32,000 nt of DNA from an uncultured Actinomycetes bacterium (GCA_963843975.1 CAWJMG010000003.1:1980001-2012000); one strand, 5' to 3'; shown: positions 6,875 to 32,000, numbered from the stretch's first letter. Notes: generated by a model not told the origin, from the sequence alone. Program-made: numbers and translations.

Positions 6875-7480
6875 TCACGGCTCGGCTTCGAGCCACTCGT
6901 TGGCGGTGGGCTCGCTGGGTACGACGCTTCCCGCCTCGGCCCAGCCCTCCTCGATCGCGGCCATCGCCTCGTCGACCGACGACGTCCACACGAGCTGGGC
7001 GGCGGCGACGTCCCGTACGAACCCGGCCTCGACCAGACCGCTCACGAGCTCGGCGAGCGGGTGCAGGTCGCGCCACGGGTCGAGCACCACGATCGGCTTG
7101 TCGTGCAGGCGCAGCGACCGAGCGACCCAGATCTCGAGCAGCTCCTCGAGCGTGCCGATGCCGCCGGGGAGGGTCAGGAACGCGTCGGCGCGACGGTCCA
7201 TCTCGCCCTTCCGCTCGCGCATGTCGTCGGTGACGACGAGCTCGTCGGCGCCGTGGTCGGCGACCTCCATCTCCACGAGCGCGCGCGGGATGACGCCGAT
7301 GGTGTGCGCGCCGCCTGCGCGGGCAGCGCGGGCCACGGCACCCATGGAGCTCACAGATCCACCGCCGCTCACCAGGGTCCAGCCTCGGCGCGCGAGCGCG
7401 AAGCCGACCTCGGCGGCGAGGACCTTGTAGCGCTCGTCGATGTTCTCGCTCGACGCGCAGAACACGGCGACTGCCGGCAT
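6875..7480 (-). CDS. LOG family protein (TIGR00730; cytokinin riboside 5'-monophosphate phosphoribohydrolase-like), short type
   Basis: From the ATG at 7480 it reads MPAVAVFCASS...GWTLVSGGGSVSSMGAVA...LTLPGGIGTLEELLE, containing the PGGxGTxxE motif. It starts 1 nt after the upstream LOG gene's stop. Confidence 0.85.
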   Translation of the reverse strand: MPAVAVFCASSENIDERYKVLAAEVGFALARRGWTLVSGGGSVSSMGAVARAARAGGAHTIGVIPRALVEMEVADHGADELVVTDDMRERKGEMDRRADAFLTLPGGIGTLEELLEIWVARSLRLHDKPIVVLDPWRDLHPLAELVSGLVEAGFVRDVAAAQLVWTSSVDEAMAAIEEGWAEAGSVVPSEPTANEWLEAEP

Positions 7481-7481
7481 C

Positions 7482-8231
7482 TCAGGCCTCCACGGGGGGC
7501 TCGACGTGGTGGGCGCCGTTTCCGGTGTGCCCGTGGATCTCCTGAGCGTCGAGGATGATCCGCACGACCTCGTCGAGATCGTCGGTGAGGTGCACCAGCG
7601 CGAGGTCCTGCGACGACACACGACCGGTGGCGAGCATCGTGTCGCGCAGCCAGTCGATGAGCCCGCCCCAGTACGCCGTACCCACGAGCACCACGGGGAA
7701 GGACGTGACCTTGCGCGTCTGCACGAGCGTGAGCGACTCGAAGAGCTCGTCGAGGGTGCCGAAGCCGCCGGGGAAGACGACGAACGCCTGCGCGTACTTC
7801 ACGAACATCGTCTTGCGCGCGAAGAAGTAGCGGAAGTTCACCCCGAGGTCGACGTACTGGTTCATGCCCTGCTCGAACGGCAGCTCGATGCCGAGCCCGA
7901 CCGACGTGCCGTCTGCCTCGCACGCGCCCTTGTTCGCCGCTTCCATGATCCCCGGGCCGCCGCCGGTGATGATCGCGAAGCCGGCGCCGACGAGCTTGGC
8001 CGCGATGTCGTGCGCCTGCTGGTACTCGGGCTCGTCGGGCTTGGTGCGCGCCGAGCCGAAGATGCTCACCGCCGGGCCGAGCCCGGCGAGCGCCCCGAAG
8101 CCCTCAACGAACTCGGCCTGGATGCGCAGGACCCGCCACGGGTCGGTGTGGACCCAGTCGCTCTCGCCCTGGCTGTCGAGCAGGCGCTGGTCGGTGGTGG
8201 TCTGCGGCACCTGCGAGCGGCGCAGCGTCAC
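7482..8231 (-). CDS. LOG family protein (TIGR00730), long type (Rv1205-like)
   Basis: Track ORF of 249 aa reading VSIFGSARTKPDEPEYQQAHDIAAKLVGAGFAIITGGGPGIMEAANKGA...VVFPGGFGTLDELFE. Confidence 0.9.
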   Translation of the reverse strand: MTLRRSQVPQTTTDQRLLDSQGESDWVHTDPWRVLRIQAEFVEGFGALAGLGPAVSIFGSARTKPDEPEYQQAHDIAAKLVGAGFAIITGGGPGIMEAANKGACEADGTSVGLGIELPFEQGMNQYVDLGVNFRYFFARKTMFVKYAQAFVVFPGGFGTLDELFESLTLVQTRKVTSFPVVLVGTAYWGGLIDWLRDTMLATGRVSSQDLALVHLTDDLDEVVRIILDAQEIHGHTGNGAHHVEPPVEA

Positions 8232-17213: not shown

Positions 17214-18222
17214 ATGGCGTCCCGCGACGAGCACGCGCGCCCCTCCGGCGGCCGCCCGGCCGCGCTGCTCGCGGTGCGGATCACCCCGGCGGACGTCGGC
17301 CGCCGCGTCACCGTCCGGCACCGCACCGACGACGGGATGCTCACCGACGTCGTCGGCGTGCTGCGGTCCTGGGCCGGCGGCACGCTGCTCGTGGAGCGCC
17401 GGACAGGTGCGCTGGCAGAGGTGCCCGAGGGGGACGTCGTGGCCGCCAAGGTGGTCGCGCCCGAGGTCTCGGCCGAGGCCGTGCAGCGGGTGGCGCAGGC
17501 CGGCTGGCCGCCGTTCGAGACCGCCGCGCTCGGCGAGTGGGAGCTGCGCGCCTCGGGCGGCCTCACCGGCCGCGCCAACTCGGTGCGGGTGGTCGGCGAC
17601 CCCGGAGTGCCGCTCGACGAGGCGCTCGCACGCGTGGTCGCCTGGTACGGCGAGCGCGCGCTGCCGCCGATCCTGCAGCTGCCCGAGCCGAGCCGCTGGG
17701 ACGACGACCTGGAGCGCCTCGGGTGGGCGGCGGCGCGGCGCACCACCGTCCGCACGGTCGTCACCTCCGACCTCGTGTCCGCGGCGGGCGACCTCCCGGC
17801 CGACGTGCGAGCCGAGCTGCACGACCGATCCGAGCGCCGAGGTGCTGGCGCTCGTCGAGCCGTCGCTGGATCCGGACGGCCTCGCCCGCATCCTCACCGC
17901 GCCGGCCGAGCGGGCGTTCGTCGCCCTGCGCGAGGCGGACGGCGGTCTCGTCGCGGCCGGTCGCGCGAGCACCGCGGCGTCCCCGGTGGGCCGGTGGGCG
18001 GGGATCACGAGCGTGGCCGTGGCGGAGCCTGCGCGCCGGCGCGGCCTCGGCACGGCGGTGATGGGCGAGCTGGGCAGGTGGGCCGCGGCTGCGGGCGCGG
18101 GCACGACGTACCTCCAGGTGATGGCCGCCAACGCGCCGGCCATCGCCCTCTACGAGCGGCTCGGATTCACGCTGCACCACGCCTACTGCTACCGCTCCCC
18201 CGGCCCGATCTCCCCCCGCTGA
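17214..18222 (+). pseudogene. two-domain GNAT N-acetyltransferase, frame broken by a 1-nt insertion near 17826-17830
   Basis: The N-terminal part from the ATG at 17214 (RBS aagggg) reads well up to ...DLPADVRAELHDR and then becomes Arg/Gly junk. The +1 frame (track ORF 17407..18222) continues PSAEVLALVEPSLDPDGLARIL...ITSVAVAEPARRRGLGTAVMGELGRWAAAAGAGTTYLQVMAANAPAIALYERLGF, which holds the acetyl-CoA motif RRRGLG. Confidence 0.75.
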
Positions 18223-18238
18223 CACCCCCACGCTCAAC

Positions 18239-19393
18239 CTGATCAATCCGTCGGCGGTCTCAAGCGGCTGTTGCACCGAGGACCTCGGTGAGGGCCTCGC
18301 GGGGAGTCTTCCAGTCCAGGGTCATGCGCGGTCGGGTGTTGAGGCTGGGGGCGACGGCGTCGCAGTCGGCCTGGGTCAGTCCGCGCATGTCGGCGCCCTT
18401 GGGCCAGTACTGACGCAGCAGCCCGTTGGTGTTCTCGTTGCTGCCTCGTTGCCAGGGTGAGTGCGGGTCGGCGAAGTAGATGTCGATGTCCGCTTCGATG
18501 GCGATCGCCGCGTGCTGGGCCATCTCCTTGCCCCGGTCCCAGGTCAGGGTCTTGCGGATCTGGTCGGGCAGTGAGGCGATCAGCGGGGTGAGGACCTCTT
18601 GGAGGTCGATCGCCTTGTGGGTGTCGGGCAGCGGAGCGAGCAGCACGAACCTGGTCGACCGCTCGACCAGAGTGATCACAGCGCCCTTGCCGATCCCGCC
18701 CATCAGCAGGTCGCCCTCCCAATGGCCCGGAACGGCACGGTCAGCGGCCTCAGCCGGCCGAGCGCTGATCGGGATGGTGCCGACCAGCTTGCCGCGGGTC
18801 TCCTTACGTCCCTGCGGCTTGCGGCTGGTCCGCCCGGTGCGCAGATGCTTGGCCAGCTCGCGGCGAAGCTCGCCGCGAGCCTGCACGAACAGTGACCGAT
18901 AGATCGTCTCGTGGCTCACCCTCATACCGTCCTGGTCGGGATAGAGCTCGGGCAACCGCTGGGCAATCTGCTGCGGGGACCAGTTCGCCTGAAGCAGCCC
19001 CGACACCACCAGCCCCAGGTCCCCGGCGAGCTTGAAACCCTTCGGCCGCCGAGCCGACTCCGTGGCCCGGGCCTGAGCGACCCAGGCGTGATAGACCGCA
19101 GAGCGTCCTCGGGTCCCGCGGCGCGCCGACCCCGCCGGATGCTTGGGCCTGCGATTGGGGCGCGACCCAGAGCCTTGCGACAACTCACGCGCCACGGTGG
19201 TGCGGTGCTTGCCCACCAGTTCGGCGATCTGCGGCACAGACAACCCCTGCCGCATGGCCCGCTCGATCACCCCACGGTCGTGCTCGGTCAACCTCGCTCC
19301 AGGCATCCCAACCTCCAAGCTGCACAAGACCACGTGCAACTACCAGTTGAGAACGCCGTCGTTTCCCGGCCCCGGAAGCGACGGATTGATCAG
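18239..19393 (-). mobile_element. IS30-family insertion sequence (about 1155 bp) with terminal inverted repeats
   Basis: The left end ctgatcaatccgtcg (18239-18253) is the perfect reverse complement of cgacggattgatcag (19379-19393). The IRs may extend 6 bp outward (ctcaac/ctcaca, two mismatches). It contains a single intact transposase ORF. Confidence 0.85.
18260..19306 (-). CDS. IS30 family transposase
   Basis: ATG at 19306 follows RBS ggagg. There is an N-terminal HTH (GLSVPQIAELVGKHRTTVAREL), then WSPQQIAQRL and HWEGDLLMG...TLTWDRGKEM...ADPHSPWQRGSNENTNGLLRQYWPKG, a DDE catalytic core. Confidence 0.9.
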   Translation of the reverse strand: MPGARLTEHDRGVIERAMRQGLSVPQIAELVGKHRTTVARELSQGSGSRPNRRPKHPAGSARRGTRGRSAVYHAWVAQARATESARRPKGFKLAGDLGLVVSGLLQANWSPQQIAQRLPELYPDQDGMRVSHETIYRSLFVQARGELRRELAKHLRTGRTSRKPQGRKETRGKLVGTIPISARPAEAADRAVPGHWEGDLLMGGIGKGAVITLVERSTRFVLLAPLPDTHKAIDLQEVLTPLIASLPDQIRKTLTWDRGKEMAQHAAIAIEADIDIYFADPHSPWQRGSNENTNGLLRQYWPKGADMRGLTQADCDAVAPSLNTRPRMTLDWKTPREALTEVLGATAA

Positions 19394-19461: not shown

Positions 19462-20295
19462 ATGAGTGCTGCCTCGCGCGAGCGCTTCGCCGACGTCGTC
19501 CGCCTGGGCGGCGCCGCGGGCGACCCGGACGACGTGCGCCTCGACCTCGCCCTGCTGCTGATCTCCGCCGAGGCCCTGCCGGACGACGTCTCCGGCGACA
19601 CCCTGGAGACCCTGCTCATGCGCGGCGTCTCAGACCTCGACGCCCTCGCCGAGGAGGTGCCGACGGACGGCCGCGACGACCAGCGCCTGCGCAGCGTGCT
19701 CGGCGGCTTCAGCGGCGAGTCCTCGGACTACGCCCGGCTCGAGTCGAGCCTGCTCACCGACGTCCTGAAGCGGCGTCGCGGCCTGCCGATCCTGCTGTCG
19801 AGCGTGTGGACCGAGGTGGCCCGCCGCGTCGACGTGCCGGCGTACGGCGTCGGGCTCCCCGGCCACTTCGTCGTGGGCGTCGGCGACCCCGACGGCAACC
19901 GCGTGCTCGTCGATCCGTTCGAGGGTGGCCGGCTGCTGCCCTACGACACCGCCCGCTCGATCGCCGAGCGAACCGGGCGCTCGCTGCGGCCCGAGCACCT
20001 GCGGCCGCACGACCCGATCGACACCCTCGACCGCGTGCTGACCAACATCCGCGCGTGGGCGAGCACGCCCGAGCGCGCATGGCACCGGCTCTGGGCGGTC
20101 GAGCTCGCGCTCCTGCTGCCGCGCCACGACCTCGGGCTGCGCCGCGAGCACGGCGAGGCGCTGATCAGCGTGGGTCGGTACTCCGAGGCCTCACGCGTGC
20201 TCGAGGAGTACGCCGAGACCGTGGAGGGCCCGATGCCGCTCGAGGCCGAGCACGCCCGCCGCGTCGCCCGCCAGGCCCGCTCGCGCCTCAACTAG
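19462..20295 (+). CDS. transglutaminase-like/TPR protein (SirB1 family)
   Basis: The sequence reads SSLLTDVLKRRRGLPILLSSVWTEVARRVDVPAYGVGLPGHFVVGV...VDPFEGG, followed by a TPR-like tail. I chose the ATG at 19462; the GTG at 19444 is an alternative start. Confidence 0.7.
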   Translation: MSAASRERFADVVRLGGAAGDPDDVRLDLALLLISAEALPDDVSGDTLETLLMRGVSDLDALAEEVPTDGRDDQRLRSVLGGFSGESSDYARLESSLLTDVLKRRRGLPILLSSVWTEVARRVDVPAYGVGLPGHFVVGVGDPDGNRVLVDPFEGGRLLPYDTARSIAERTGRSLRPEHLRPHDPIDTLDRVLTNIRAWASTPERAWHRLWAVELALLLPRHDLGLRREHGEALISVGRYSEASRVLEEYAETVEGPMPLEAEHARRVARQARSRLN

Positions 20296-20334
20296 CGTGA
20301 CGCGCACGCCAAGCTGGACACACGAGGGGGACCA

Positions 20335-21529
20335 GTGATCGGGACGCCGCCCACCATGCCGGCTCTCCGCGAGGTGGACGGCGTGCGCGCCCTCCACCTC
20401 GACGGCACGGGCGTGACGACCGTGACGCTGTGGATCGGTGCAGGTCTGGTCGACGAGACGTTCCGTTCCACGGGACTGGCTCACCTCGCGGAGCACGTGG
20501 TGATGCGCGCCCTGGGTCGAAGCACCGTGATGCACAACGCCACCACGTGGCCTGGGATGACGGAGATCTGGGTCCGCGGGCCGGCTGCCCAGGTAGCCGA
20601 GGCCATGGCGCGGATCTGCGAGGGCATCCGAGACGCGGCACGCGGGCTCGACCCGTCCACGGTCGCGGACGAGACACGCATCCTCGTGGCCGAGGGCGCG
20701 CCGGCATCCACCCTCTTCCACCCGCTCTACGAGCGGTACGGCCTGAGTGGCCCGGGGCTCCTCGCGATTCCGCCTGTCGCACCGCAGACGCTGACGGCTG
20801 ACGACGTCGCACGGTGGGTGTCCTCGTACTACGTGGCCTCGAACGTGGTCGTCACGGTTCTGGGTCCTTGGCCTGACAGCCTCCACCTGGAACTGCCCAC
20901 CGGCGTAGCAGCGCCCCGCGCGGAGGCGGTACCCCTCCCGGGCAGGACGTTGCCCGCCCAGTTGTCGCTCCCTGGATACCCGGGCGTCGCACTTCAGTGG
21001 CTCCGCCCGAGGGCAGAGGGTCACAGCGCGTTCGACCGCATCGTTGCCGACCGTCTCCACACCCGCCTGCGCACCGAGCTGGGCCAGTCGTACTCCGTGA
21101 CCCTCGAGACTCTCCCCGTCGATCGTCGGGATGTCGCGGTGACGATCGGGCTCGACTGCGCCCCGGGGGCCGAGGGCGAGGTGGCGCAGCAGTCGATCGC
21201 GGAAGCTTCTGCAACTGGCTGACGAAGGTCCCGATCCTGAGGACCTCGAGCACGACGCAGCGACCCTCGAGACGCTTCTCCTCGATCCCGAGTTCGGCGG
21301 CGCCATCCTCGCCACGGAGGCAGCTCGGCTCATCGAGCCGTTCGCGGACCCCCTGACCGGCCACACGCCACGTGATGCCGCCTTGCTGCCGACATCGATC
21401 CGCGCGCTGACGCAGCGCGTCGCACGGGAGAAGCTACCGGCGTGCGGTCGAGACCCTGGTAGTCGTCCACGGGGCCGGCGCGCCTATCGCCGCCCCGGCA
21501 CGTCTCGTGGATCTGCCCTCAGTGCCTGA
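20335..21529 (+). pseudogene. M16 (insulinase/pitrilysin) family peptidase-like gene, at least one and probably two frame disruptions
   Basis: Frame A (20335..21222) carries the inverted zinc motif GLAHLAEHVVM (HxxEH). From about 21203 the sequence continues sensibly only in the next frame (KLLQLADEGPDPEDLEHDAATLETLLLDPEFGGAILATEAARLIEPF...IRALTQRVARE). After about 21431 sense moves to a third frame (YRRAVETLVVVHGAG). GC3 is lower than in flanking core genes. Confidence 0.6.
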
Positions 21530-21854
21530 TTGCGTCCAGGGGGCGATCGAGGGAACGCCCCTAGGACGGAGGCTCTTCCGGGGAGTGCGACGCGGCGTGC
21601 GCATCGTGTGGAACCCCACAACCCTGGCGATCGGGTCCGGCACGACGTGGCACGTCGTCGCGATCGGGGACGTCGTCGGGCTGGGTGTGGCGGGATCGGC
21701 ACGACAGGTGGTCTCGCGCAGCGGTTGCTCCATCGACGTCGACCCCCGCCACTTCCGCGGAACAGACGCGCTTGTCGCCCACCTCGACCAGCGCATCGAC
21801 GCCGCCCTTCGTTTCCCCGATGACCGCGGGCCGACCCCCGTTCGGCACGGATAA
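21507..21854 (+). CDS. hypothetical protein (115 aa), or C-terminal continuation of the degraded M16-like gene
   Basis: This is a track ORF from a GTG. It is in the same frame as the third segment of the M16-like gene, and that frame is open from about 21413. The composition is protein-like, but I recognise no family. Confidence 0.35.
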   Translation: MDLPSVPDCVQGAIEGTPLGRRLFRGVRRGVRIVWNPTTLAIGSGTTWHVVAIGDVVGLGVAGSARQVVSRSGCSIDVDPRHFRGTDALVAHLDQRIDAALRFPDDRGPTPVRHG

Positions 21855-21865
21855 GTCGTCTCATC

Positions 21866-21888
21866 ATTCGGAAAGTTCTGTCCCGAAT
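21866..21888 (+). promoter_or_regulatory. AT-rich inverted repeat upstream of the methyltransferase gene
   Basis: The repeat attcgg-N11-ccgaat sits inside the most AT-rich stretch I noticed in the window. It is followed by tagtggtact (-10-like) and the ATG at 21915. Confidence 0.3.
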
Positions 21889-21914
21889 AGTGGTACTCGC
21901 TGCATGCTGCTCCC

Positions 21915-22715: not shown

Positions 22716-24554
22716 TCAGGTGGCGGACGGAGACGGGGACTTGGACGTCGACGGCTTGGGCGTCGGCGACTTGGAGCCCGAGCCGGACGGCGACGGAGAC
22801 GGCGACGGGGTCGGCTTGTCCTTCGGATCGGTGCCGCAGATCACGGTCGGCGAGGGGCGGTAGCGGGTGGTGATCTTCTCCCGCTTGACCTCCTTGCCGT
22901 CCTTGATGAAGACGCGGAACACGTCGATCGTGAAGCCCTGCTGGCCGCCCTGCGCGCGGCACGTGGGCGACGGGTCGTAGAGGGTGTCGAACGGCACGAT
23001 GTTGCGCTTGGCGCTCGACACGGCCTGGATGTCGTCGTAGACCTTGGTGCCCCACATCGTGACCGTGAGGGACGTCCTGGTCATGATCGTGGTGATGTAG
23101 ACGCCGTCCGGGGTGTCGTTCTTGAACTTCATGTCGAACGCGCCCCAGGCCACCGTGGCCTCGAGGCCGGCGCGGTAGCGCGGGATCCAGATCGAGTGGG
23201 CCTGGGTGTAGACGCGCTCGAGGCCGGAGTAGAACGCCGCCGACCAGGCTGTGGTCGCCGAGGCCGACACGCCGCCGCCCTGGTCCTCCTTGAACACGCC
23301 GCCAGGCCCGATGACGAAGCCCTTGGTGTAGCCGTTGGCGACGGTGCGCTCCTTGATCACCTTGTTGAGCGAGAACACCTCGCCCGGCTTCAGGAGCGTG
23401 CCGTTGATGTACTTGCCGGCCTGGCCGATGTTCTGGAAGCGGTAGGCGGCGTACGGGAAGTTCTGGGTGAACGAGCCGAGCTTCTCGACCACGTTGAGGG
23501 CCTTGGCCTGCTCGGTGGTGAGCTTGGGCTCGATCGTGCCGAGAGCGGGTGTGACCACCCGTGCGGCGGCGTCGGTGCTGCCCATGACGGCCGCGACGGC
23601 GGTCGCGAGATCGTCCGGGTTGATGCCGGTGCCCACCTTGGACGGGACGACGACGGGCTTGCCGCTCGAGACGTTCCAGGTGGCGTCGCGGCCGGGCTTC
23701 TCGACGGGCGCGAGCTCGTCCTCGATCGACGTCCGCAGGATCGCTCCGTCGAGCGAGCCGACGAGGTCGCCGCCCACCGGCGCGAAGGCCAGCGCGCGAC
23801 CGATCGCCTCCGCGGGGATGTCCGCCGTGACCTTGCCGGCCTTGACCGTCACGGGTGCCGCGATGGCGGCCTTGGCGACGAGGAGGGCGGCGTCGGCCTT
23901 GTCCTGCGGGACCGACGGCGTGGTCTCGATCTCCGGCAGCGCGACGGTGTCGGTGGTCACGAGGTACGCGTCGGCGAGGGCCTGCGCGGCGGCGGGCTGG
24001 TCCATCGCGCGGCCGTTGGAGCCGTTGACGAGGACGGCCTCGGAGCCGCGCACCTCGATCGAGGGCTCGACGGGAGCGGAGTCGGAGTCGGCGGCGAGCT
24101 GCTTCACCGCGGCGTCGAGCGCACCCTGGTCGACACCGGTGACCGGCGTGATGGTGGGGCCGCCGGTGAACTGGGTGATGAGCGTGACGGGGTTCCAGAT
24201 GCGGCCGGCGTAGCCGTCGACCGTCGCCGCGGCGTCGAAGGTGAGGCCGGCGTCGGCCGGGACGATGCTGACGCTGTCCTCGCCGATCGTGGCGTTGATG
24301 GGGTCGGTCGCGCGCGGACCGAGCTCGGTCTCCAGCTTCGCCGCCGCCTGCTCCTCGGAGAGGCCTCCTACCTCGACGCCCAGCACCTTGGCGCCGCGCG
24401 GCAGACCGTCGCCGCTGGCCGCCACGAGCGCGGCGTAGAACGCACCGACGAGCAGCACGGCGATGCCGCCCCACAGCAGGAGCCGCCGCCATCCGCCGGA
24501 GCGGTGCTCCGGCACGGTGGGGTCGGGGGCGATCGGGTCGGTCGTGGCAGTCAC
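22716..24554 (-). CDS. VanW family protein (N-terminal TM, VanW domain, G5-like domain, Pro/Ser-rich C-terminal tail)
   Basis: GTG at 24554, with TM WRRLLLWGGIAVLLVGAFYAALVAA. The VanW core reads QNFPYAAYRFQNIGQAGKYINGTLLKPGEVFSLNKVI...GGGVSASATTAWSAAFYSGLE. The tail is PKDKPTPSPSPSPSGSGSKSPTPKPSTSKSPSPSAT. Confidence 0.85.
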   Translation of the reverse strand: MTATTDPIAPDPTVPEHRSGGWRRLLLWGGIAVLLVGAFYAALVAASGDGLPRGAKVLGVEVGGLSEEQAAAKLETELGPRATDPINATIGEDSVSIVPADAGLTFDAAATVDGYAGRIWNPVTLITQFTGGPTITPVTGVDQGALDAAVKQLAADSDSAPVEPSIEVRGSEAVLVNGSNGRAMDQPAAAQALADAYLVTTDTVALPEIETTPSVPQDKADAALLVAKAAIAAPVTVKAGKVTADIPAEAIGRALAFAPVGGDLVGSLDGAILRTSIEDELAPVEKPGRDATWNVSSGKPVVVPSKVGTGINPDDLATAVAAVMGSTDAAARVVTPALGTIEPKLTTEQAKALNVVEKLGSFTQNFPYAAYRFQNIGQAGKYINGTLLKPGEVFSLNKVIKERTVANGYTKGFVIGPGGVFKEDQGGGVSASATTAWSAAFYSGLERVYTQAHSIWIPRYRAGLEATVAWGAFDMKFKNDTPDGVYITTIMTRTSLTVTMWGTKVYDDIQAVSSAKRNIVPFDTLYDPSPTCRAQGGQQGFTIDVFRVFIKDGKEVKREKITTRYRPSPTVICGTDPKDKPTPSPSPSPSGSGSKSPTPKPSTSKSPSPSAT

Positions 24555-24788
24555 AGGTGAGTCCAAGGATCGTCGGCGTCGTCGTCCCGACCTTCGACCG
24601 AGCCGCGGACCGCGGCGTCCGGGAGGGTCGCGTGGCACGCGACGGGTACCCCCAGGGTAGAGGCTCCCCGGGGATGCTCTGTATTCCGAGAGATGCGACG
24701 CGCCGCCCCGCGGCACGGTTCCGTCCTACATGCGGGCAGAGTCACCCGGTCCTCACGCTGCGCGCACGGCCGCGCGGATTCCGGACGG

Positions 24789-25316
24789 TCAACGGCCGGA
24801 AGGGTCACCGAGCGTGCCGTATCCGCTGGCGAAGTACAGCAGCGGGCGGCCTTCCGGGCGGGCGAGATCGAGGCCGACGACGCGGCCGACCACGATGTCG
24901 TGGTCACCGGCGCGGTGGACCGCCTCGGTGACGCACTCGAGCGTCGCGAGGCAGCCGTCGAGCAGGAGCGCGCCGTTCTCGACAGAGCGGCGGGTGGGCG
25001 TCGTGTCGAACTGGCCGACGAGCGGGCGGCCGCTCGTGGCGAACCACGTCGCCCGTCCCCGCTGGCCCTCCTCGAGCACGCTGACGTTCCAGGCGCCGGC
25101 GTGCAGCACGGCCTCGTGGAAGCGCGACTCGGTCTCGACGCACACGAGCACGAGCGCGGGGTCGAGGGAGACCGACGCGAAGGAGTTCGCCGTCATCGCA
25201 TGGTCGACGCCGTCCTGGACGCACGTCACCACCGTCACCCCGGTGGCGAACCTGCCCATGACCGTGCGGAAGTGGTCGGCCCGTACCGGGCCCGTGCCGA
25301 TCTCCGCCGCGCTCAT
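24789..25316 (-). CDS. flavin reductase family protein (NAD(P)H-FMN oxidoreductase, RutF/HpaC-like)
   Basis: Track ORF of 175 aa reading FRTVMGRFATGVTVVTC...MTANSFASVSLDPALVLVCV...GDHDIVVGRVV. Confidence 0.85.
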   Translation of the reverse strand: MSAAEIGTGPVRADHFRTVMGRFATGVTVVTCVQDGVDHAMTANSFASVSLDPALVLVCVETESRFHEAVLHAGAWNVSVLEEGQRGRATWFATSGRPLVGQFDTTPTRRSVENGALLLDGCLATLECVTEAVHRAGDHDIVVGRVVGLDLARPEGRPLLYFASGYGTLGDPSGR

Positions 25317-25363: not shown

Positions 25364-26362
25364 TCAGACCCGGACGCCGGACAGGCGGGCGTGGTCGATG
25401 ACGACGGCGGCCGGCGGTGCGACGAGCCGCAGCGTCGTGAGCGCCGACTCCCCGAACGCGTTCGGCGCCGAGCTCGACAGCGCGAGGACGCCGAGGAGCC
25501 GTCCGCCCGCTCGCAGCGGCATCGAGAGGAACGTCGCGAGGCCCGGGTTCTCGACCGTGTCCGCGTCCGCAGCGCCGAGGCGCCCGTGCGGGTCGGCGAT
25601 CATCGGCAGCAGCTCGTGCGCGGCCGTGGGCACTCCGCTCGCCTGCTCGGCGGCCTGGGCGATCGCGTCGAGCATCTCGAGGTACTGCTGGTCGGTGACG
25701 TCGCGGGCGACCGAGACGTACGTCGCGTCCGGCGCCTCCCGGTGCGGGTCGAGCAGCAGGACGGCGGCGAGGTCGCAGTCGACGATCGCCTCCATCGCCT
25801 GCAGCACGGCCGCGACCGTCTCCTCGAACCCGTGCACGTCGGCCGCGATGGTCGTGACGTCCTGCGTCACCGACGCCTCGAACAGCTTGCGGTCGAGCAG
25901 GTCGCAGACGCGCGCGAGCACGTCGTCGTCGCTCAGCTCGATCGGGTCGGCCTTCATCGAGGGTCGGCCGCCACGCGCCCGCTCGGCGGTGAGGATCGCG
26001 CCGCGGACGGCGTCGACGAGCTCCGGGGCCTCGAAGTCCTTCGTGAGGAACCGCTCGGCACCTGCGCGGGCACCCCAGTAGCGGTCGCTCGCGGCGTTGA
26101 GCGAGGTGAGGAACAGCACCGGCATGTCCGCCGTCTGCCAGTCGTCCTTGAGCACGCGCGCGGCGACGTAGCCGGACACGCGCGGCATCTGGACGTCGAG
26201 GATCACGACGTCGGGCATCGTGCGGAAGACGGCCTGCACCGCCTCGACGCCGTCCTCGGCGAGGACCACCTCGAAGCCGGCGTCGCCGAGCACGCCCGCC
26301 ACGATGCGTCGCAGGGTGGGGCTGTCGTCCGCCACTACCGCCGTGGGCTTCCCGTACGTCAT
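25364..26362 (-). CDS. response regulator, receiver (REC) domain fused to a GAF-like domain, no recognisable output domain
   Basis: ATG at 26362 follows RBS gaggaagg. The REC domain reads AVVADDSPTLRRIV...DVVILDVQMPRVSGY...PVLFLTS...GAERFLTKDF. The C-terminal half reads ...AVLQAMEAIVDCDLAAVLLLD...FLSMPLRAGGRLLGVLALSS, which is GAF-like by pattern. Confidence 0.75.
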   Translation of the reverse strand: MTYGKPTAVVADDSPTLRRIVAGVLGDAGFEVVLAEDGVEAVQAVFRTMPDVVILDVQMPRVSGYVAARVLKDDWQTADMPVLFLTSLNAASDRYWGARAGAERFLTKDFEAPELVDAVRGAILTAERARGGRPSMKADPIELSDDDVLARVCDLLDRKLFEASVTQDVTTIAADVHGFEETVAAVLQAMEAIVDCDLAAVLLLDPHREAPDATYVSVARDVTDQQYLEMLDAIAQAAEQASGVPTAAHELLPMIADPHGRLGAADADTVENPGLATFLSMPLRAGGRLLGVLALSSSAPNAFGESALTTLRLVAPPAAVVIDHARLSGVRV

Positions 26363-26453
26363 GTCGTCGCCTTCCTCGTCCTTGTCGTCGCGGGTCCCGC
26401 CGTACGACCTGTGCTCCCCGTGCTGGTGGTGCTGGTCCCTGTCGCCATCGCGC

Positions 26454-28691
26454 TCACCGACCCACGAGCCGGCGCACGGTGTCGACCAGGGCGCGCTGGT
26501 CGAACTCCTTCTTGAGCAGGTACGCGTCCGCACCCGCATCGAGCCCTGCGCGCTTGTCGGCGTCGTCGCCGCGCGAGGTCATGATCACGACCGGGACGTT
26601 CTCCCAGCCGCGCGTCTTGCGGATCGTGCGGGTCAGCGTGAACCCGTCCATGCCCGGCATCTCGACGTCCGAGAGCACGAGGTCGACAGGGCCGCCCTGC
26701 AGCCGCGATGCGCCGTCGAGGCCGTCGACGGCGGTGACGACGTCGTACCCGGCGCCCTCGAGGATCGACCGCTGCAGCTCGCGGACGCCGAGCGAGTCCT
26801 CGACGACGAGCACCCTGGCGCGTCCCTCCCCCTCACGGGAGGGGCGTGGGGTGGGCTGCTCGTCGCCCGTCATGGTCGCCACGGCTGCGTGGTCCGCAGC
26901 GGCGGCGGAGCCGAGGGCGGAGGTGCCCGTCCAGCGGGCGGCCAGCTCGCGCAGGTCGACGAGCAGGAGCACCGAGCCGTCGTCGTCGATCGTGGCGCCG
27001 GCGGTTCCGGGCACGCGGCCGAGGAAGTCGCCGAGGCTCTTCACGACGACCTCCCGCTCGGACTCGACCTCGTCGACGGCCCAGGCCACCGACTCACCGG
27101 TGAGCCGGGCGACGACGGCCGCGCGCGGAGCGCGGGCGCCGACGACGCCGAGGACCTCGCCGAGGTCGGCGAGCGGCATCGTGGTGCTGGAGCCCTCGCG
27201 GGAGATGACCAGGGACCCGGCCACGTCGTGGACGGCGACGTCGCCGAGCGACAGCGTCTCGACGACGCCGGCGAGCGGCACGGCGTACCGCTCGGTGCCG
27301 CAGCGCACGAGCAGGCAGCGGGCGACGCCGAGCGTGACGGGGAGCGTGAGGACGAAGCGGGTGCCGGTGCCGAGCGCGCTGACGACCTCGATCGTGCCGC
27401 CCAGCTCCTGCACGGCGGTACGCACGACATCGAGGCCGACGCCGCGGCCCGAGGTCGTCGTCACGTCCTCGCGGGTGCTGAACCCTGCCTCGAACAGCAC
27501 CTGGTGCAGCACCGAGCCCGCTGCGGTCGTGCCCTCGGGCAGGTAGCCGCGGCGTACGGCGACGTCACGGAGCAGGCCGTCATCGACGCCCACGCCGTCG
27601 TCCTCGACCTCGACGACCACGGACGAGCCGGCGTTGCGTGCGGTGAGCGTGACGGTGGCCCGGCGGGGCTTGCCCGTGGCTACGCGGACGTCGGGCGTCT
27701 CGCACCCGTGGTCGACCGCGTTCGTGACGAGGTGGCGCAGGGCGTCGGCGACGCCGTCGAGCACGCGCACGTCGAGCTCGACGTCCGCGCCGACGAGCAC
27801 CAGCTCGACGTCCTTGCCGGAGGCGCCGGCGACCTCGCGGACGAGGGCGGGGAAGGCTGCGGCCACCCGGCGCACGGGCACCATCGCGAGGCCCATGGCT
27901 CCGTCGCGCACCCGGGCGAGGCGGTTGCCCGCGTCCTCGGTGCGCGAGCGCAGATCCCGCGTCGACGCGTGCAGGCGGTCGCTGACGCCGACCATCGCGG
28001 TGACGCAGTCGCCGAGCTCACCGGCGGCGGCACCGCGCAGCAGGGCGGCCCGCAGTGCCTTGACGAGGCCCTGGTGCTCGGCGAGGAGATCGGTGAGCTC
28101 ACGGGTGTGGCGCTCGACCCGGCGCACGTCGAGCTCGGCCTCGCCCACGACGTCGAGCAGGCCGTGGACGCGGCGGGTCGGCACACGAACCTGGTCGCCG
28201 AGGCGCCCGCCCGCGACGGGCTGGTGCGCCTCCGCGTCGGCGTCGTGGTGCTCGGCGGCGTCGACCGCCTCGACGGCGGGCAGGCGCGGCACGTCGACGT
28301 GCTCGCGGCCGGCGATCGCGGCGTCGAGCGAGGCGAGGGCTTCCGCGCGGATGGCGGGCGGAACGGCCCAGTCCTCGCCAGGCACCCAGCGCGAGAGCAG
28401 CTCGGTCGTGACGAGCAGGAGGTCGATGATGTCGCGGCGCGCGGCGACCCGGCCGTCGCGCACGCGCGTGAGCAGGTCCTCGGCACGGTGGGCCAGCTCG
28501 ACGACGTCGGACGCCCCGAACATCGTCGCGGAGCCCTTGAGCGTGTGCGCGTCGCGCATGAGCACGGTGGCGGCCTGACGCGGCTGGGCGGACCCCTCGA
28601 GCACGAGGAGCCCGTCACGCAGCGACGCGGAGCGCTCCGCCGCCTCGTGACGGAAGCTCGCCGCGAGCTCCGGGTTGTCCGACCAGGCCAT
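26454..28691 (-). CDS. cheA: hybrid chemotaxis histidine kinase CheA (HPt - dimerisation - HATPase - CheW-like - REC)
   Basis: Track ORF of 745 aa. The HPt domain is LMRDAHTLKGSATMFG. The ATPase region reads HLVTNAVDHG...VEDDGVGVD...GRGVGLDVVRTAVQELGGTIEVVSALGTGTRFVLTLP. The P5 (CheW-like) domain reads ERYAVPLAGVVE. The C-terminal REC reads RVLVVEDSLGVRE...DLVLSDVEMPGMDGF...PVVIMTS...GADAYLLK. Confidence 0.9.
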   Translation of the reverse strand: MAWSDNPELAASFRHEAAERSASLRDGLLVLEGSAQPRQAATVLMRDAHTLKGSATMFGASDVVELAHRAEDLLTRVRDGRVAARRDIIDLLLVTTELLSRWVPGEDWAVPPAIRAEALASLDAAIAGREHVDVPRLPAVEAVDAAEHHDADAEAHQPVAGGRLGDQVRVPTRRVHGLLDVVGEAELDVRRVERHTRELTDLLAEHQGLVKALRAALLRGAAAGELGDCVTAMVGVSDRLHASTRDLRSRTEDAGNRLARVRDGAMGLAMVPVRRVAAAFPALVREVAGASGKDVELVLVGADVELDVRVLDGVADALRHLVTNAVDHGCETPDVRVATGKPRRATVTLTARNAGSSVVVEVEDDGVGVDDGLLRDVAVRRGYLPEGTTAAGSVLHQVLFEAGFSTREDVTTTSGRGVGLDVVRTAVQELGGTIEVVSALGTGTRFVLTLPVTLGVARCLLVRCGTERYAVPLAGVVETLSLGDVAVHDVAGSLVISREGSSTTMPLADLGEVLGVVGARAPRAAVVARLTGESVAWAVDEVESEREVVVKSLGDFLGRVPGTAGATIDDDGSVLLLVDLRELAARWTGTSALGSAAAADHAAVATMTGDEQPTPRPSREGEGRARVLVVEDSLGVRELQRSILEGAGYDVVTAVDGLDGASRLQGGPVDLVLSDVEMPGMDGFTLTRTIRKTRGWENVPVVIMTSRGDDADKRAGLDAGADAYLLKKEFDQRALVDTVRRLVGR

Positions 28692-28700
28692 GGGGACGCC

Positions 28701-30272
28701 TCACGCCACCCGGAAGCGCTGGATCGACTCGCGCAGCTCGGACGACAGCATGGTGAGCTGGGCGGCCGCCGCGGCGGACTGCTTGGAGCCGACGGCGTAC
28801 TGGCGCGACACGTCCGACACCTGCGTCATCGCCGCGACCACCTGGTCGGACGCCGAGCGCTGCTGCTGGGTCGCGATCGAGATCTCCTTGGCCGCGGTGG
28901 TGGTCTCGTCGACCATGCCGGAGATGCGCTCGAGCGCCTCGACGACCTCGCGGGCGAGCTCGGCGCCGGCGTGGACCTCCTTGCTGCCGTCCTCGGTGGC
29001 GAGGATGGTCGCGTGGGTCTCGGTCTGGATCTGGGCCACGATCGCCTGGATCTGCCCGGCCGACTCCTGCGAGCGCTCGGCGAGCTTGCGCACCTCGGTG
29101 GCGACGACGGCGAAGCCGCGGCCGTGCTCGCCGGCACGCGCGGCCTCGATGGCGGCGTTGAGCGCGAGCAGGTTGGTCTGGTCGGCGAGGTCGTCGATCA
29201 CCTCGAGGATCCGGCCGATCTCCTGGCTCTTCTCCCCCAGCGACAGCGCGCGGGTGGCGATGGAGTCCACGCGGTCGGCGATCTGGTCCATGGAGTACAC
29301 CGACGCGGCGACGGCCTGACGGCCCTCCTCCGCGTGGCGCAGGGTCTCGGCGGCGTACCGGGCGACGGCCTCGGCGGTGTCGGCGATCTGCGCGGCGGTG
29401 GCCGCGAGCTCCTCGATGGTCGAGGTGGTCTCGGCGACGGCGGACGACTGCTGCGTGGCGCTGGCCGCGTGCTCCTCGGCGTTGGCGAGCAGCTCGGTGG
29501 CGCTGGCGGCGATCTGCTCGCCACCGCTGCGCACCTGCTCCACGAGCGTGGCGAGGTTCTCGAGCGCCTCGTTGACCGAGGTCGACAGCACCGCGACGGT
29601 GTCGATGTCGCCGCCTTCACCCTCTGCGAGCGCTGCGACGTCGATACGGGCGGACAGGTCGCCGGCGGCGGCGCGCTCGAGCTGCTCGGTGAGCGCGTCG
29701 ACGCGGGCCGACAGCTCGCTGCGCTCACGCGACGACCGGCTGCCGAAAGCGAGGACCGCCTCGACGAGCTGGCCGCCGATGAGCGTCATCGCCGGCAGGG
29801 CGACGAGCGCAAGGAGGCCGAGCGGGAGGGCCGAGCCGGTCCAGGTGCCGGTCACGGTGCCGGTGAACGCGACGCTCGCCGAGAGCAGCAGCGCGAACAG
29901 AGGCAGGGTCCAGCGCGAGAACAGCAGCGAGGCGAAGAGGACGTTGACGGCGAGCAGCACCGAGGCGGAGCCGAGCAGGCCGCCGGAGGCCACAGCCAGG
30001 CCGGTGATGTAGACGACGTTGGTGACGAGCAGGACGCGACCCACCTTGAGGGCCTGGTCGAGCACGGCTCCCGAGCGGTGGGCGCGCCAGGCGAGGTACG
30101 ACGTGAGCCCGGCGAGGGCCGCGCCGAAGCCCGTCCACGCCCAGGTCTGCACCAGGTCGACCGATGCGGCGGGCACGAACTGCAGCGTCAGGTACGCCGA
30201 GACGAGGCCGAGGACGACGCACCCCCAGGTGGCGACGCCCGCGATGACCGCGATGCGCTTGCTGAACTCCAC
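28701..30272 (-). CDS. methyl-accepting chemotaxis protein with a 6-TM N-terminal module and no periplasmic ligand-binding domain
   Basis: I prefer the GTG at 30272 (RBS gggag); the track ORF starts 12 codons earlier at 30308. The first 200 aa contain about six hydrophobic helices, then a HAMP-like linker. The MCP signalling core reads [43 protein letters not shown]. Confidence 0.85.
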
Positions 30273-30353
30273 GACTGCTCCCGCACTACGCCGCGCGAGA
30301 CCCCCCACGGGTCCCTACGTGGTTGTCGGCAGCCCTGGCGTCACCTGAAGGGG

Positions 30354-30872
30354 TCAACGGGGTCGGGATGCGTGACCGCGGGCGAGGCCCAGCACGGCCT
30401 GCGCGTCGAGCACGGCCACCGGCCCGGTGGCCGACCCGTCGTCCGCGAGGCCCACGACGAGGTCCGAGGCCTCCGACGCGAGCGTGAGCGGCGCCCGCTC
30501 GTGGTCGTCGGGCACCTCGATCAGGCCCAGGACCTGGTCGGCCACGATGCCGACCTCGACGTCGTCCGAGCGCACCACGACGACGCGGGCGCTGGAGGCC
30601 AGCGGGGTCGCCGCGATGCCGAGCAGCGGCCTCAGGTCGGCCACGGGGAGCACGTGGCCCCGCCAGTTGCCCACGCCGAGCAGCCAGGACGGTCCGGCAG
30701 GGACGCGCGTGAGGCCCGGCACGGGTACGACCTCGACCACGTGCGCGGCACCCACGGCGTACCGGCCCGCACCCAGGCGCACGACGACGTGCTCGTGCCC
30801 GACGACGGCGTCCACGTCGACGACGTCGTCGTCGAACCAGGTCGGCGCCGGGTCGGCGGGGTGAAGGCTCAC
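30354..30872 (-). CDS. cheW: CheW-like coupling protein
   Basis: The GTG at 30872 lies 7 nt after the upstream gene's stop. The sequence reads VVRLGAGRYAVGAAHVVEVVPVPGLTRVPAGPSWLLGVGNWRGHVLPVADLRPLLG...VVVVRSDDVEVGIVADQVLGLIEV. Confidence 0.8.
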   Translation of the reverse strand: MSLHPADPAPTWFDDDVVDVDAVVGHEHVVVRLGAGRYAVGAAHVVEVVPVPGLTRVPAGPSWLLGVGNWRGHVLPVADLRPLLGIAATPLASSARVVVVRSDDVEVGIVADQVLGLIEVPDDHERAPLTLASEASDLVVGLADDGSATGPVAVLDAQAVLGLARGHASRPR

Positions 30873-30879
30873 ACGTCCG

Positions 30880-31347
30880 TCATCGGACGTCGGCGGCGTC
30901 CCCTGTAGGGGGAACGGGGTCGCCGAAGCCCTCGAAGGGGCCCGCGAGGCGGCCGCCGCGCTCCTCGGCCATGAGCTCGGCGTGGCCCTCGGGCAGCCGC
31001 CAGACCAGTGCGAGGAGGCCGAGGACGAAAGCCAGGCCGAGGTACCAGTAGCTGCGAGGGACGTCGGGCAGCAGGACGTCGCCGCCAGGGGCGACGAGCA
31101 GGACGACCGCCGAGGCCACGAACCAGCCAGCCAGCAGGACACCGGCGGTCGGACGCGAGCCCGTGCTCCAGAGGGTGGCCCGCACCGCGACGCCGAGCGA
31201 GACGGCCATGAGGACGAGACCCCAGGGCAGCATCACCGAGCCCACGGGCGTGCGGGCGGCCGACACGACCGAGCCGACGAGGCCCAGCAGGACGCCGAGG
31301 AACCCCATGAGCACGACCGTGGTGGGGTTCGCCCGGGACGTCGTCAC
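30880..31347 (-). CDS. 4-TM integral membrane protein, hypothetical
   Basis: Track ORF of 155 aa. Its GTG start overlaps the FtsH-like gene's stop (GTGA). It has four hydrophobic segments and an acidic, Pro-rich cytoplasmic tail. Confidence 0.65.
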   Translation of the reverse strand: MTTSRANPTTVVLMGFLGVLLGLVGSVVSAARTPVGSVMLPWGLVLMAVSLGVAVRATLWSTGSRPTAGVLLAGWFVASAVVLLVAPGGDVLLPDVPRSYWYLGLAFVLGLLALVWRLPEGHAELMAEERGGRLAGPFEGFGDPVPPTGDAADVR

Positions 31348-32000
31348 ATGTCGAGGGTAACCGCGGCCTCCGTGCGGACAGCAGCGGCACGGACGTCGAC
31401 GACGGTGTCGGCCTCGGCCTTGGCCGCCGACGCTGCCTCGAGGATGTCGGTGATCTCCCGGCCGATGAGCTCGTGGCGCTCGACGAGCGCGTCGCGCAGC
31501 GCCTCGACGAGGTGACGGTTCTCGTTCAGGAGGGCGAGCGTGTACGCCTTCTGCGCCTGCAGCAGCTTCTCGACCCGCGCGCGTCCCTCGGCGTCGCCGA
31601 GCACCTTGCCGACCAGGTTGGTGTCGCTGAGGGCCGAGCCCTGCACGGCGGCGTAGGAGATCAGCGTGTCGGTCATGCCGGCGGAGCCGATCATCTGCGC
31701 GGCCACGTTGGTCGCGTAGAGCAGGTCGCCCGCCGGTCCGGTGCTGATGTCGTCGAAGAAGAGCTCCTCGGCCGCCTGACCGCCCATGGCGATCTGCATG
31801 AGCGCGATCATCTCCGAGCGAGAGCGCGTGAAGACGTCCTCGGCGTCGCCATGAGCGAGCATGCCCAGGGCGTCCTTGCGCTTGATGATCGTGAGCACCT
31901 CGAGGCGGCGCTGCGGCGCGGTGAGCCAGGCGGCGACCGCGTGGCCGGCCTCGTGCGTCGCGATGAGGCGCTGCTCGTGCGGGGTGTAGGCGACGGGCTG
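31344..32000 (-). CDS. ftsH: FtsH-like ATP-dependent zinc metalloprotease, C-terminal M41 peptidase domain (N-terminal part lies beyond the window)
   Basis: Manual extension to the window edge gives QPVAYTPHEQRLIATHEAGHAVAAWL (HExxH). It continues VLTIIKRKDALGML...MGGQAAEELFFDDISTGPAGDLLYATNVAAQMIGSAGM. This is diverged from housekeeping FtsH, so it may be a paralogue. Confidence 0.8.
   Translation of the reverse strand, partial: QPVAYTPHEQRLIATHEAGHAVAAWLTAPQRRLEVLTIIKRKDALGMLAHGDAEDVFTRSRSEMIALMQIAMGGQAAEELFFDDISTGPAGDLLYATNVAAQMIGSAGMTDTLISYAAVQGSALSDTNLVGKVLGDAEGRARVEKLLQAQKAYTLALLNENRHLVEALRDALVERHELIGREITDILEAASAAKAEADTVVDVRAAAVRTEAAVTLDM

Follow-up and report, generated by a model that had tools for sequence, protein, structure and literature searches.

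We analysed a 32,000-nt stretch of DNA from an uncultured Actinomycetes bacterium (GCA_963843975.1 CAWJMG010000003.1:1980001-2012000), referred to below as the window, and in particular its positions 25364-32000, where the initial annotation had placed an orphan chemosensory (Che-like) operon of six minus-strand genes. Read in the direction of transcription, these encode an FtsH-like AAA+/M41 protease whose gene is cut by the end of the window, a small DUF6113-like membrane protein, the adaptor CheW, a chemoreceptor (MCP), a hybrid CheA kinase with a C-terminal receiver (REC) domain, and a regulator in which a receiver is followed by a helix and a GAF domain (REC-GAF). The genes had been described as co-directional and tightly spaced, and the sequence and the open reading frame (ORF) coordinates agreed with this at every junction. 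The stop codon of the FtsH-like gene and the GTG start of the DUF6113-like gene overlap in a GTGA at 31344-31347, and 7 nt separate the DUF6113-like stop from the GTG at 30872 that starts CheW. By ORF coordinates the gap between CheW and MCP is 45 nt with an MCP start at 30308 and 81 nt with a start at 30272 (homologues start VEFSKR), and the gap between MCP and CheA is 9 nt. REC-GAF lies 91 nt beyond CheA if it starts at the ATG at 26362, as suggested by the genes called in the related loci L001 and L004. The G+C content of the window is 68-76%, and the six ORFs have a third-codon-position G+C content (GC3) of 0.90-0.96, which matches that of genuine genes. A Pfam scan agreed with the domains named earlier for all six proteins, although the DUF6113 match was sub-threshold. 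Likewise, Kyte-Doolittle hydropathy gave the four transmembrane (TM) segments assigned to the small protein and, for the six-TM MCP, five strong segments and one weak one, and the M41 domain identified the protease.

The order CheW-MCP-CheA-REC/GAF recurs in eight further full loci (L001, L002, L004, L005, L085, L088, L090 and L211, with ~8-10 kb of flank), with CheA identities of 59-89%. The same order in eight independent loci is more than chance would give. Gene-order conservation, which had been named as a check on the initial annotation, was therefore found, strictly for the four-gene core and with the DUF6113-like gene as an optional element. The conserved module is four genes, encoding CheW, one or more MCPs, CheA-REC and REC-GAF, and this cassette sits within a conserved chromosomal backbone that runs from mshB to the flavin reductase and vanW genes. 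The full order is MshB, AAA+/M41, DUF6113 (in some loci), CheW, MCP, CheA-REC, REC-GAF, flavin reductase (in some loci) and VanW, with ferredoxin and aminotransferase further on. The upstream gene was identified as MshB by the TIGR03445 equivalog model (372 bits against a 224-bit cut-off), and VanW is kept downstream in all long loci. Identities across the cassette, together with a near-invariant cytoplasmic domain in the receptor, indicate strong purifying selection. The hosts are labelled as Sporichthyaceae, Frankiales and 'Nanopelagicales' metagenome-assembled genomes (MAGs); they are mostly uncultured, and one, Longivirga aurantiaca, is cultured.

The backbone is also found without the cassette. 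We scanned metagenome contigs with a motif specific to the FtsH paralogue, ELLVQMQSF, and classified the genes downstream of it. CheW/MCP/CheA came next in 16 loci, flavin reductase directly (at 38-500 nt and with no Che gene) in 14, VanW directly in 2, and other genes, with MshB still upstream, in 2; another 48 loci, at 42-61% identity, had unrelated neighbours and no MshB upstream. With locus L089 included, the FtsH-like gene was followed by flavin reductase or VanW and no Che genes in 17 of the 33 classified mshB-context loci. The order in L089 is MshB, FtsH-like, a 141-aa protein and VanW, and its FtsH-like protein is 75% identical and occurs on 14 contigs. Since the FtsH-like gene lives without Che genes in about half of the related loci, the protease is independent of the cassette, and the six genes did not evolve as one unit. 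The proposal of a six-gene unit coupled upstream to a membrane protease was thus not supported; both the protease gene and, where present, DUF6113 occur in Che-less loci, and the apparent coupling is largely explained by insertion of the cassette into the backbone.

Where the cassette is present, its position is constant. In each of the 25 informative loci it lies downstream of the FtsH-like gene and shares its strand; 24 have it directly adjacent, and co-transcription with that gene is probable. The exception, the metagenome locus L119, has GAF-ANTAR and PAS-GGDEF genes between FtsH-like and DUF6113-CheW; the insertion site accepts other signalling genes. The flavin reductase gene is present in most Che-containing loci. 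We rejected it as a member of the cassette, as 14 Che-less loci have it straight after the FtsH-like gene and three loci with the Che genes (L005, L211 and L212) lack it. In the window it begins 47 nt past REC-GAF in the same direction, and it may be co-transcribed with it; no terminator-like site was seen between the two, in terminator and promoter scans that were uninformative at 73% GC.

Table 1. Coordinates of features in the window and of selected genes in related loci (handles beginning with L).
Feature	Sequence	Position	Strand	Remarks
FtsH-like AAA+/M41 paralogue, C-terminal 218 aa	window	31344..32000	-	Pfam Peptidase_M41 3.5e-31; gene cut by window end
DUF6113-like 155-aa membrane protein	window	30880..31347	-	PF19608 E 2e-3; GTG start
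CheW adaptor, 172 aa from GTG 30872	window	30354..30872	-	Pfam CheW 1.2e-27; maximal ORF 30354-31142
Chemoreceptor MCP	window	28701..30308	-	MCPsignal 6.5e-47; alternative start 30272
Hybrid CheA, Hpt-HATPase_c-CheW-Response_reg	window	26454..28691	-	Pfam
REC-helix-GAF regulator, 332 aa from ATG 26362	window	25364..26362	-	Response_reg 3e-22, GAF 1e-12; maximal ORF 25364-26539
Flavin reductase (HpaC/FerA-like)	window	24789..25316	-	Flavin_Reduct 2.4e-40; NCBIfam matches all under cut-off
VanW/PG_binding_4 protein	window	22716..24716	-	Pfam VanW 1.1e-35; backbone neighbour
FtsH-like orthologue	L004	5354-7354		
FtsH-like orthologue	L001	5342-7342		
FtsH-like orthologue	L002	5279-7231		
FtsH-like orthologue	L085	3117-5087		
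CheA and receiver as separate genes	L085	7729-9959		639 aa and 119 aa, overlapping
Cassette variant with tandem MCP genes	L090	11560-17160		three MCP genes; no DUF6113
Inserted signalling genes	L119	2072-4351		GAF-ANTAR and PAS-GGDEF
Distant REC-GAF with CheW and glycosyltransferase	L213	544-3604		41% identity, GAF region
IS30-type transposase (rve + HTH_38)	window	18254-19355	-	ORF 18260-19339
Rv0428c-like acetyltransferase	window	17214-18219	+	
Extra DNA relative to L004	window	20293-21900		~1.5 kb
ORF in the extra DNA	window	20191-21366	-	391 aa; no Pfam match
Two adjacent LOG-family ORFs (Lysine_decarbox/SLOG)	window	6875-8231	-	maximal coordinates 6875-7621 and 7482-8231 overlap

The core signalling unit of the cassette is complete, with MCP, CheW and a CheA that has the Hpt, kinase and CheW-like P5 domains, all above the Pfam gathering cut-offs. 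His49 of the Hpt domain, the N box and the G1/G2 boxes of CheA are invariant in 13 orthologues, and so are the receiver residues E631/D632, D675, T705 and K727 (Response_reg, residues 627-739). These findings uphold the earlier description of a full chemosensory set built around a hybrid CheA-REC. No Pfam match to a P2 domain was found in CheA. The P3 domain H-kinase_dim (PF02895) likewise gave no match, nor did it in WspE of the Pseudomonas putida locus L023, and a P3-like start motif, VRVPTRRVHGLLDVVGE, is present at residues 168-184 in a segment that is divergent. CheA of the window is 86-89% identical to its counterparts in L001 and L004. It has more than 1400 homologues at E<1e-20, the best named being that of Longivirga aurantiaca (Sporichthyaceae, 86%), and full-length homologues number more than 1000 each for CheA and REC-GAF. 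In L085, on a 3.5-Mb contig, the kinase and its receiver are called as two overlapping genes, whether through a frameshift or assembly error or because the gene is truly split.

A single CheW gene is present in every locus examined, and the homologues are called at 153-174 aa. The receptor consists of an N-terminal TM bundle, a HAMP-like segment (…AAGDLSARI…) and then the signalling hairpin, and it has no extracytoplasmic domain. We count six TM segments, including the weaker one, because that number places HAMP in the cytoplasm. Among six MCP orthologues the TM region keeps its topology and little of its sequence, and from HAMP onward the protein is nearly invariant; the window MCP is 95-98% identical to those of L001 and L004. 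The hairpin Glu is residue 394, and the C-terminal arm is 20 heptads (141 residues) long. Alignment with P. putida WspA (32% identity) needs no gap anywhere in the signalling domain, from just after HAMP to a shared C-terminal RF(R/K)V. One variant of the cassette, in L090, has three tandem MCP genes.

The gene for REC-GAF lies directly 3' of cheA in 15 of 15 loci (the window and the eight full loci together with L003, L006, L007, L086, L087 and L212). This is consistent with the earlier proposal that a receiver fused to a GAF-like domain is the only candidate output, and REC-GAF is the putative output of the pathway. An AlphaFold2 (AF2) model, with a mean predicted confidence (pLDDT) of 85.7, has REC at residues 7-130 and GAF at 179-327, joined by a helix of 30 residues (145-175). 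Neither Pfam nor the model gave any domain beyond GAF, and there is no GGDEF. In 40 sequences D12/D13, D56 and K108 are invariant and T86 nearly so; thus both receivers of the cassette carry the acidic pair, the phospho-acceptor Asp, the Thr and the Lys. The inter-domain helix (…ARVCDLLDRKLFEASV…) ranks among the best-conserved stretches of the protein. In a search with the GAF sequence against 1.84 billion representatives, the ~320-aa REC-GAF architecture was confined to a few 50% clusters, and giant multi-GAF proteins made up the rest. The best fold matches to the model were the REC-GAF tandems of a cyanobacterial dual-sensor histidine kinase (6OAQ/6OAP/6OB8, E ~1e-13), which share the receiver, the long helix and the GAF domain. 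Their GAF is a bilin-binding photosensor within a histidine kinase, whereas that of REC-GAF is terminal, and identity is 17-19%. WspR (3BRE) aligned to the model over its full length, and RssB appeared at rank 38. In L213, which holds one of the most distant REC-GAF proteins, the gene is followed by CheW and a family-2 glycosyltransferase, which hints that the link between REC-GAF and Che proteins reaches past the mshB backbone.

The protease of the backbone is a divergent FtsH paralogue. Full-length orthologues have 644-668 aa with AAA+ and M41 domains, and the protein scores 286 bits against the TIGR01241 FtsH equivalog, for which the cut-off is 600 bits; we therefore rejected its identity as the housekeeping FtsH. 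With canonical FtsH it shares two N-terminal TM helices, the AAA Walker A motif and aromatic pore loop and the M41 HEAGH. It differs in a very short extracytoplasmic loop and in a long AAA-domain insertion between Walker B and sensor-1 with a conserved LCCGGL.GLP and two adjacent cysteines. The two TM segments, seen by Kyte-Doolittle hydropathy in the L004 orthologue, are ~18 residues apart. It differs as well in its neighbour, since the gene adjoins mshB, unlike the usual ftsH neighbourhood. The full-length orthologues read for motifs, of 650-667 aa, carry Walker A (GxPGTGKT), a Walker B-like FIEEID, the aromatic pore loop MYYG and HEAGH, the last also present in the fragment in the window, and from these motifs the protease looks catalytically competent. 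The mshB-side paralogue belongs to a wide uncharacterised family, at 42-95% identity, and about half of the sampled loci lie outside the mshB context. We also considered anti-phage defence and rejected it; PADLOC gave generic AAA matches (IetA, TRIP13) for the FtsH-like protein and none for the Che proteins.

The DUF6113-like protein, with its four TM segments, is less uniform. The window copy scored 18.2 bits against PF19608 (cut-off 27 bits). Its positional counterparts in L002, L085, L088, L119 and L211 match the family, the L119 copy with 42.5 bits. The window protein is also 37% identical (E 8e-20) to the 141-aa protein of the Che-less locus L089, for which no PF19608 match is recorded. 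DUF6113 is absent from L090 and from about five metagenome loci that have the Che genes, where CheW starts 94-200 nt past the protease gene.

Wsp had been put forward as the closest known architecture, and it proved the right comparison. A contig scan by CheA alignment returned, among the matches listed, mostly distant CheA-REC hybrids, three close loci and the canonical wspA-B-C-D-E-F-R operon of P. putida (L023) that served as comparator. CheA of the window is 33% identical to WspE over residues 13-744, that is, from end to end, with the same Pfam architecture (Hpt-HATPase-CheW-REC), and among the matches listed WspE, an alternative cellular function (ACF) kinase, is the closest verified relative outside the family. 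The two systems further share a receptor signalling domain of 40H length that aligns without gaps to the same C-terminus, an output that is a stalked REC-X protein encoded beside the kinase and not CheY, and, as is predicted for the cassette, a non-motility function. There are also clear differences. The cassette has one CheW and Wsp has two (WspB and WspD); across the nine loci it lacks the CheR and CheB that Wsp has as WspC and WspF, both present in L023; its receptor has a multi-TM bundle where WspA has a periplasmic four-helix bundle (4HB) domain; and its output ends in GAF, whereas WspR is a REC-GGDEF diguanylate cyclase, so that no synthesis of a second messenger is evident. We rejected membership in the Wsp system itself on the lack of CheR/CheB in the operon, of a second CheW and of a GGDEF output.

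A second comparison is with actinomycete systems. A C-terminal receiver is typical of F3, F5, ACF and Tfp CheAs (PMC10782961), and by Pfam the cassette CheA has the hybrid form with such a receiver and no P2 that is expected of the ACF class. The CheA of Acidothermus cellulolyticus 11B (WP_011720708) is listed as 'ACF' with MiST support, and its CheW (WP_011720706) is two accession numbers away, suggesting a CheW-MCP-CheA (W-M-A) order (PMC10746217, Table S3). The likeness to the cassette lies in the actinomycete host and in that suggested order, and it is drawn from accession spacing rather than sequence. The Acidothermus set differs in having a distant CheB/CheR/CheW set assigned to it, and neither a REC-GAF nor an FtsH-like neighbour is discussed for it. 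We found no description of the cassette, of REC-GAF as a chemosensory output or of DUF6113 in the searchable literature, in keeping with the earlier remark that the combination was not recognised as a characterised system. The cassette is real, conserved and uncharacterised, and it is a reduced Wsp/ACF-like pathway with a different output domain, not a new type of system.

No cheR, cheB, cheY or motility genes were found within ~8-10 kb in the nine loci (the window and the eight full loci), and no che, flagellar or pilus genes in the remaining ~25 kb of the window. The absence of adaptation and motility genes from the window was thus borne out, and none appeared past the position equivalent to 32000 in the flanks of the eight relatives. 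The stronger claim that the pathway has no methylation module is unproven, because the Q/E pairs of the receptor described below are invariant and related genera carry CheB and CheR at other loci. A. cellulolyticus 11B, which is flagellated, has an F5 system and a separate CheB/CheR/CheW set (PMC10746217, Table S3), and for Sporichthya polymorpha a che cluster that includes CheB and CheR is reported (PMC6194562).

Taken together, we favour, with a probability of about 0.6, a four-gene chemosensory cassette of the Wsp/ACF type with a non-motility output. The receptor, with its approximately six membrane helices, is predicted to assemble with CheW and the hybrid CheA into core signalling units. 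As it has no external domain, the cue that it reports would be one associated with the membrane or envelope. His49 would be the site of autophosphorylation in CheA, which would then pass the phosphoryl group to Asp56 of REC-GAF, and also to its own Asp675, a possible sink or modulator of the kind known from other hybrid CheAs (PMC10782961). Phosphorylation would re-pack the helical stalk of REC-GAF, as in stalked regulators of the WspR type, and the change in the stalk could alter the binding of a small ligand or a protein partner by the GAF domain. The output is expected to be a cellular response other than motor control.

Several observations weigh against this reading. Q286/Q287, E293 and E299/E300 in the N-terminal arm of the receptor and Q481-483 in the C-terminal arm are invariant among the orthologues. 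Those of the N-terminal arm precede the hairpin tip by 108, 101 and 94 residues, which is a heptad spacing, and presumably fall where Tsr sites 297, 304 and 311 would after two heptads are added; this conservation is in line with a receptor still subject to methylation or deamidation. The class assignments are by proxy. CheA likely belongs to the ACF class, judged by its likeness to WspE and by the Acidothermus listing, and the receptor would be of 40H length by its arm length and its alignment with WspA, an orthologue of which is classed 40H in MiST (PMC11253619). Searched alone against the PDB, the GAF sequence gave marginal matches (E ~0.03). Finally, the constant position of the cassette behind the FtsH-like gene (25/25) could mean a functional dependence in one direction, although we class it as positional.

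That position is the starting point of an alternative in which all six genes cooperate, with the array steering proteolysis by an FtsH-like/DUF6113 complex and phosphorylated REC-GAF acting as adaptor or allosteric regulator of the protease. RssB and CpdR are response-regulator adaptors for ClpXP, and REC-GAF resembles them as a receiver protein without a DNA-binding domain, and its own gene lies near that of an AAA+ protease; there is no homology beyond REC, the link to the protease is positional and the analogy is functional only. Besides the constant order and strand, the GTGA overlap and 7-nt gap of the window favour this alternative, as do the active look of the FtsH-like protein (Walker A, aromatic pore loop, HEAGH) and a regulator with neither enzymatic nor DNA-binding output, for which a protein partner is plausible. 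In Shewanella, post-translational regulation of RpoS has been tied to a chemosensory system (PMC9855816). However, the FtsH-like gene, with or without DUF6113, lacks Che genes in 17 of 33 mshB-context loci and in the 48 more distant ones; its conservation exceeds that of the Che proteins (in L002, 71% identity against 61% for CheA); DUF6113 is dispensable; two unrelated signalling genes lie between FtsH-like and DUF6113-CheW in L119; and the distant REC-GAF of L213, on a 4-kb contig that carries no protease gene, has CheW and a glycosyltransferase as its neighbours. We therefore regard cooperation of the six genes as unlikely, and its more specific form, in which the six-TM receptor senses the state of the envelope or membrane and phosphorylated REC-GAF docks on or gates the co-transcribed FtsH-like/DUF6113 protease, as quite unlikely.

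The invariant Q/E pairs of the methylation helices would also suit a conventional taxis pathway, in which CheA and MCP of the window feed CheY, CheR, CheB and a flagellar or pilus apparatus encoded elsewhere. Relatives can be flagellated and have other che loci, as the Acidothermus F5 system and the Sporichthya cluster illustrate, some of the matches come from Motilibacteraceae MAGs, and the automatic annotation at JGI labels some REC-GAF homologues 'PilH'. We nevertheless consider such a pathway very unlikely, given a WspE-type hybrid CheA without P2, a dedicated REC-GAF in 15 of 15 loci, a cassette with no single-domain CheY and the absence of motility genes within ~8-10 kb in nine loci; moreover, a survey of flagellated Actinobacteria assigns flagellar control to F1/F5 systems and lists the W-M-A-pattern CheA of Acidothermus as ACF (PMC10746217). 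It is scarcely credible that the genes no longer have a function and are what is left, in decay, of a chemotaxis operon that was once complete. The cassette does lack CheR, CheB and CheY, it has been lost from about half of the related backbones, and CheA is split from its receiver in L085. Against decay, 13 CheA and 40 REC-GAF sequences have kept all the catalytic residues, the receptor signalling domain is almost invariant, CheA and REC-GAF each have more than 1000 full-length homologues and the GC3 of the ORFs (0.90-0.96) is like that of real genes.

To our knowledge, non-motility chemosensory pathways are common in genomes and only a few of them are understood (Wsp, Che3 and similar). With a single receptor, adaptor, hybrid kinase and regulator, the cassette is near the minimum for such a pathway. 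It offers a tractable case in which to study the role of a GAF-terminated regulator, an array without local adaptation enzymes and the cue of a purely membrane-embedded receptor. Recognition of the apparent six-gene operon as a cassette in a backbone also sets the mshB-side protease apart as a separate, wider and likewise uncharacterised family. Were protease gating nonetheless true, this Che pathway would act on an AAA+ protease and not on a motor, cyclase or transcription factor, and its array would be devoted to membrane proteolysis in mostly uncultured and possibly non-motile actinomycetes.

Housekeeping genes fill the remaining 25 kb of the window, with a sigma factor, tag, a folP-like gene, two LOG-family genes, dapE, dapD, citrate synthase, aminotransferase, ferredoxin, transglutaminase-like, methyltransferase, vanW and flavin reductase genes. 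Rfam and tRNA scans gave no matches. The two LOG-family ORFs are adjacent on the minus strand and overlap in their maximal coordinates, which points to a tandem duplication.

Comparison with L004 (89% CheA identity) showed differences in this part of the window. An IS30-type transposase gene lies between the Rv0428c-like acetyltransferase and transglutaminase-like genes, and the ~1.1-kb segment that carries it is absent from L004. The L004 acetyltransferase matches the window gene in two tblastn pieces that are in different frames and meet at ~17806-17819, and the reading frame is thus shifted right beside the insertion sequence element, either because the gene is a pseudogene or through an error in sequencing. 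Between the transglutaminase-like and methyltransferase genes the window has extra DNA with an ORF on the minus strand (Table 1). L001 has a different extra gene, with a weak DUF5122 match, between VanW and the methyltransferase.

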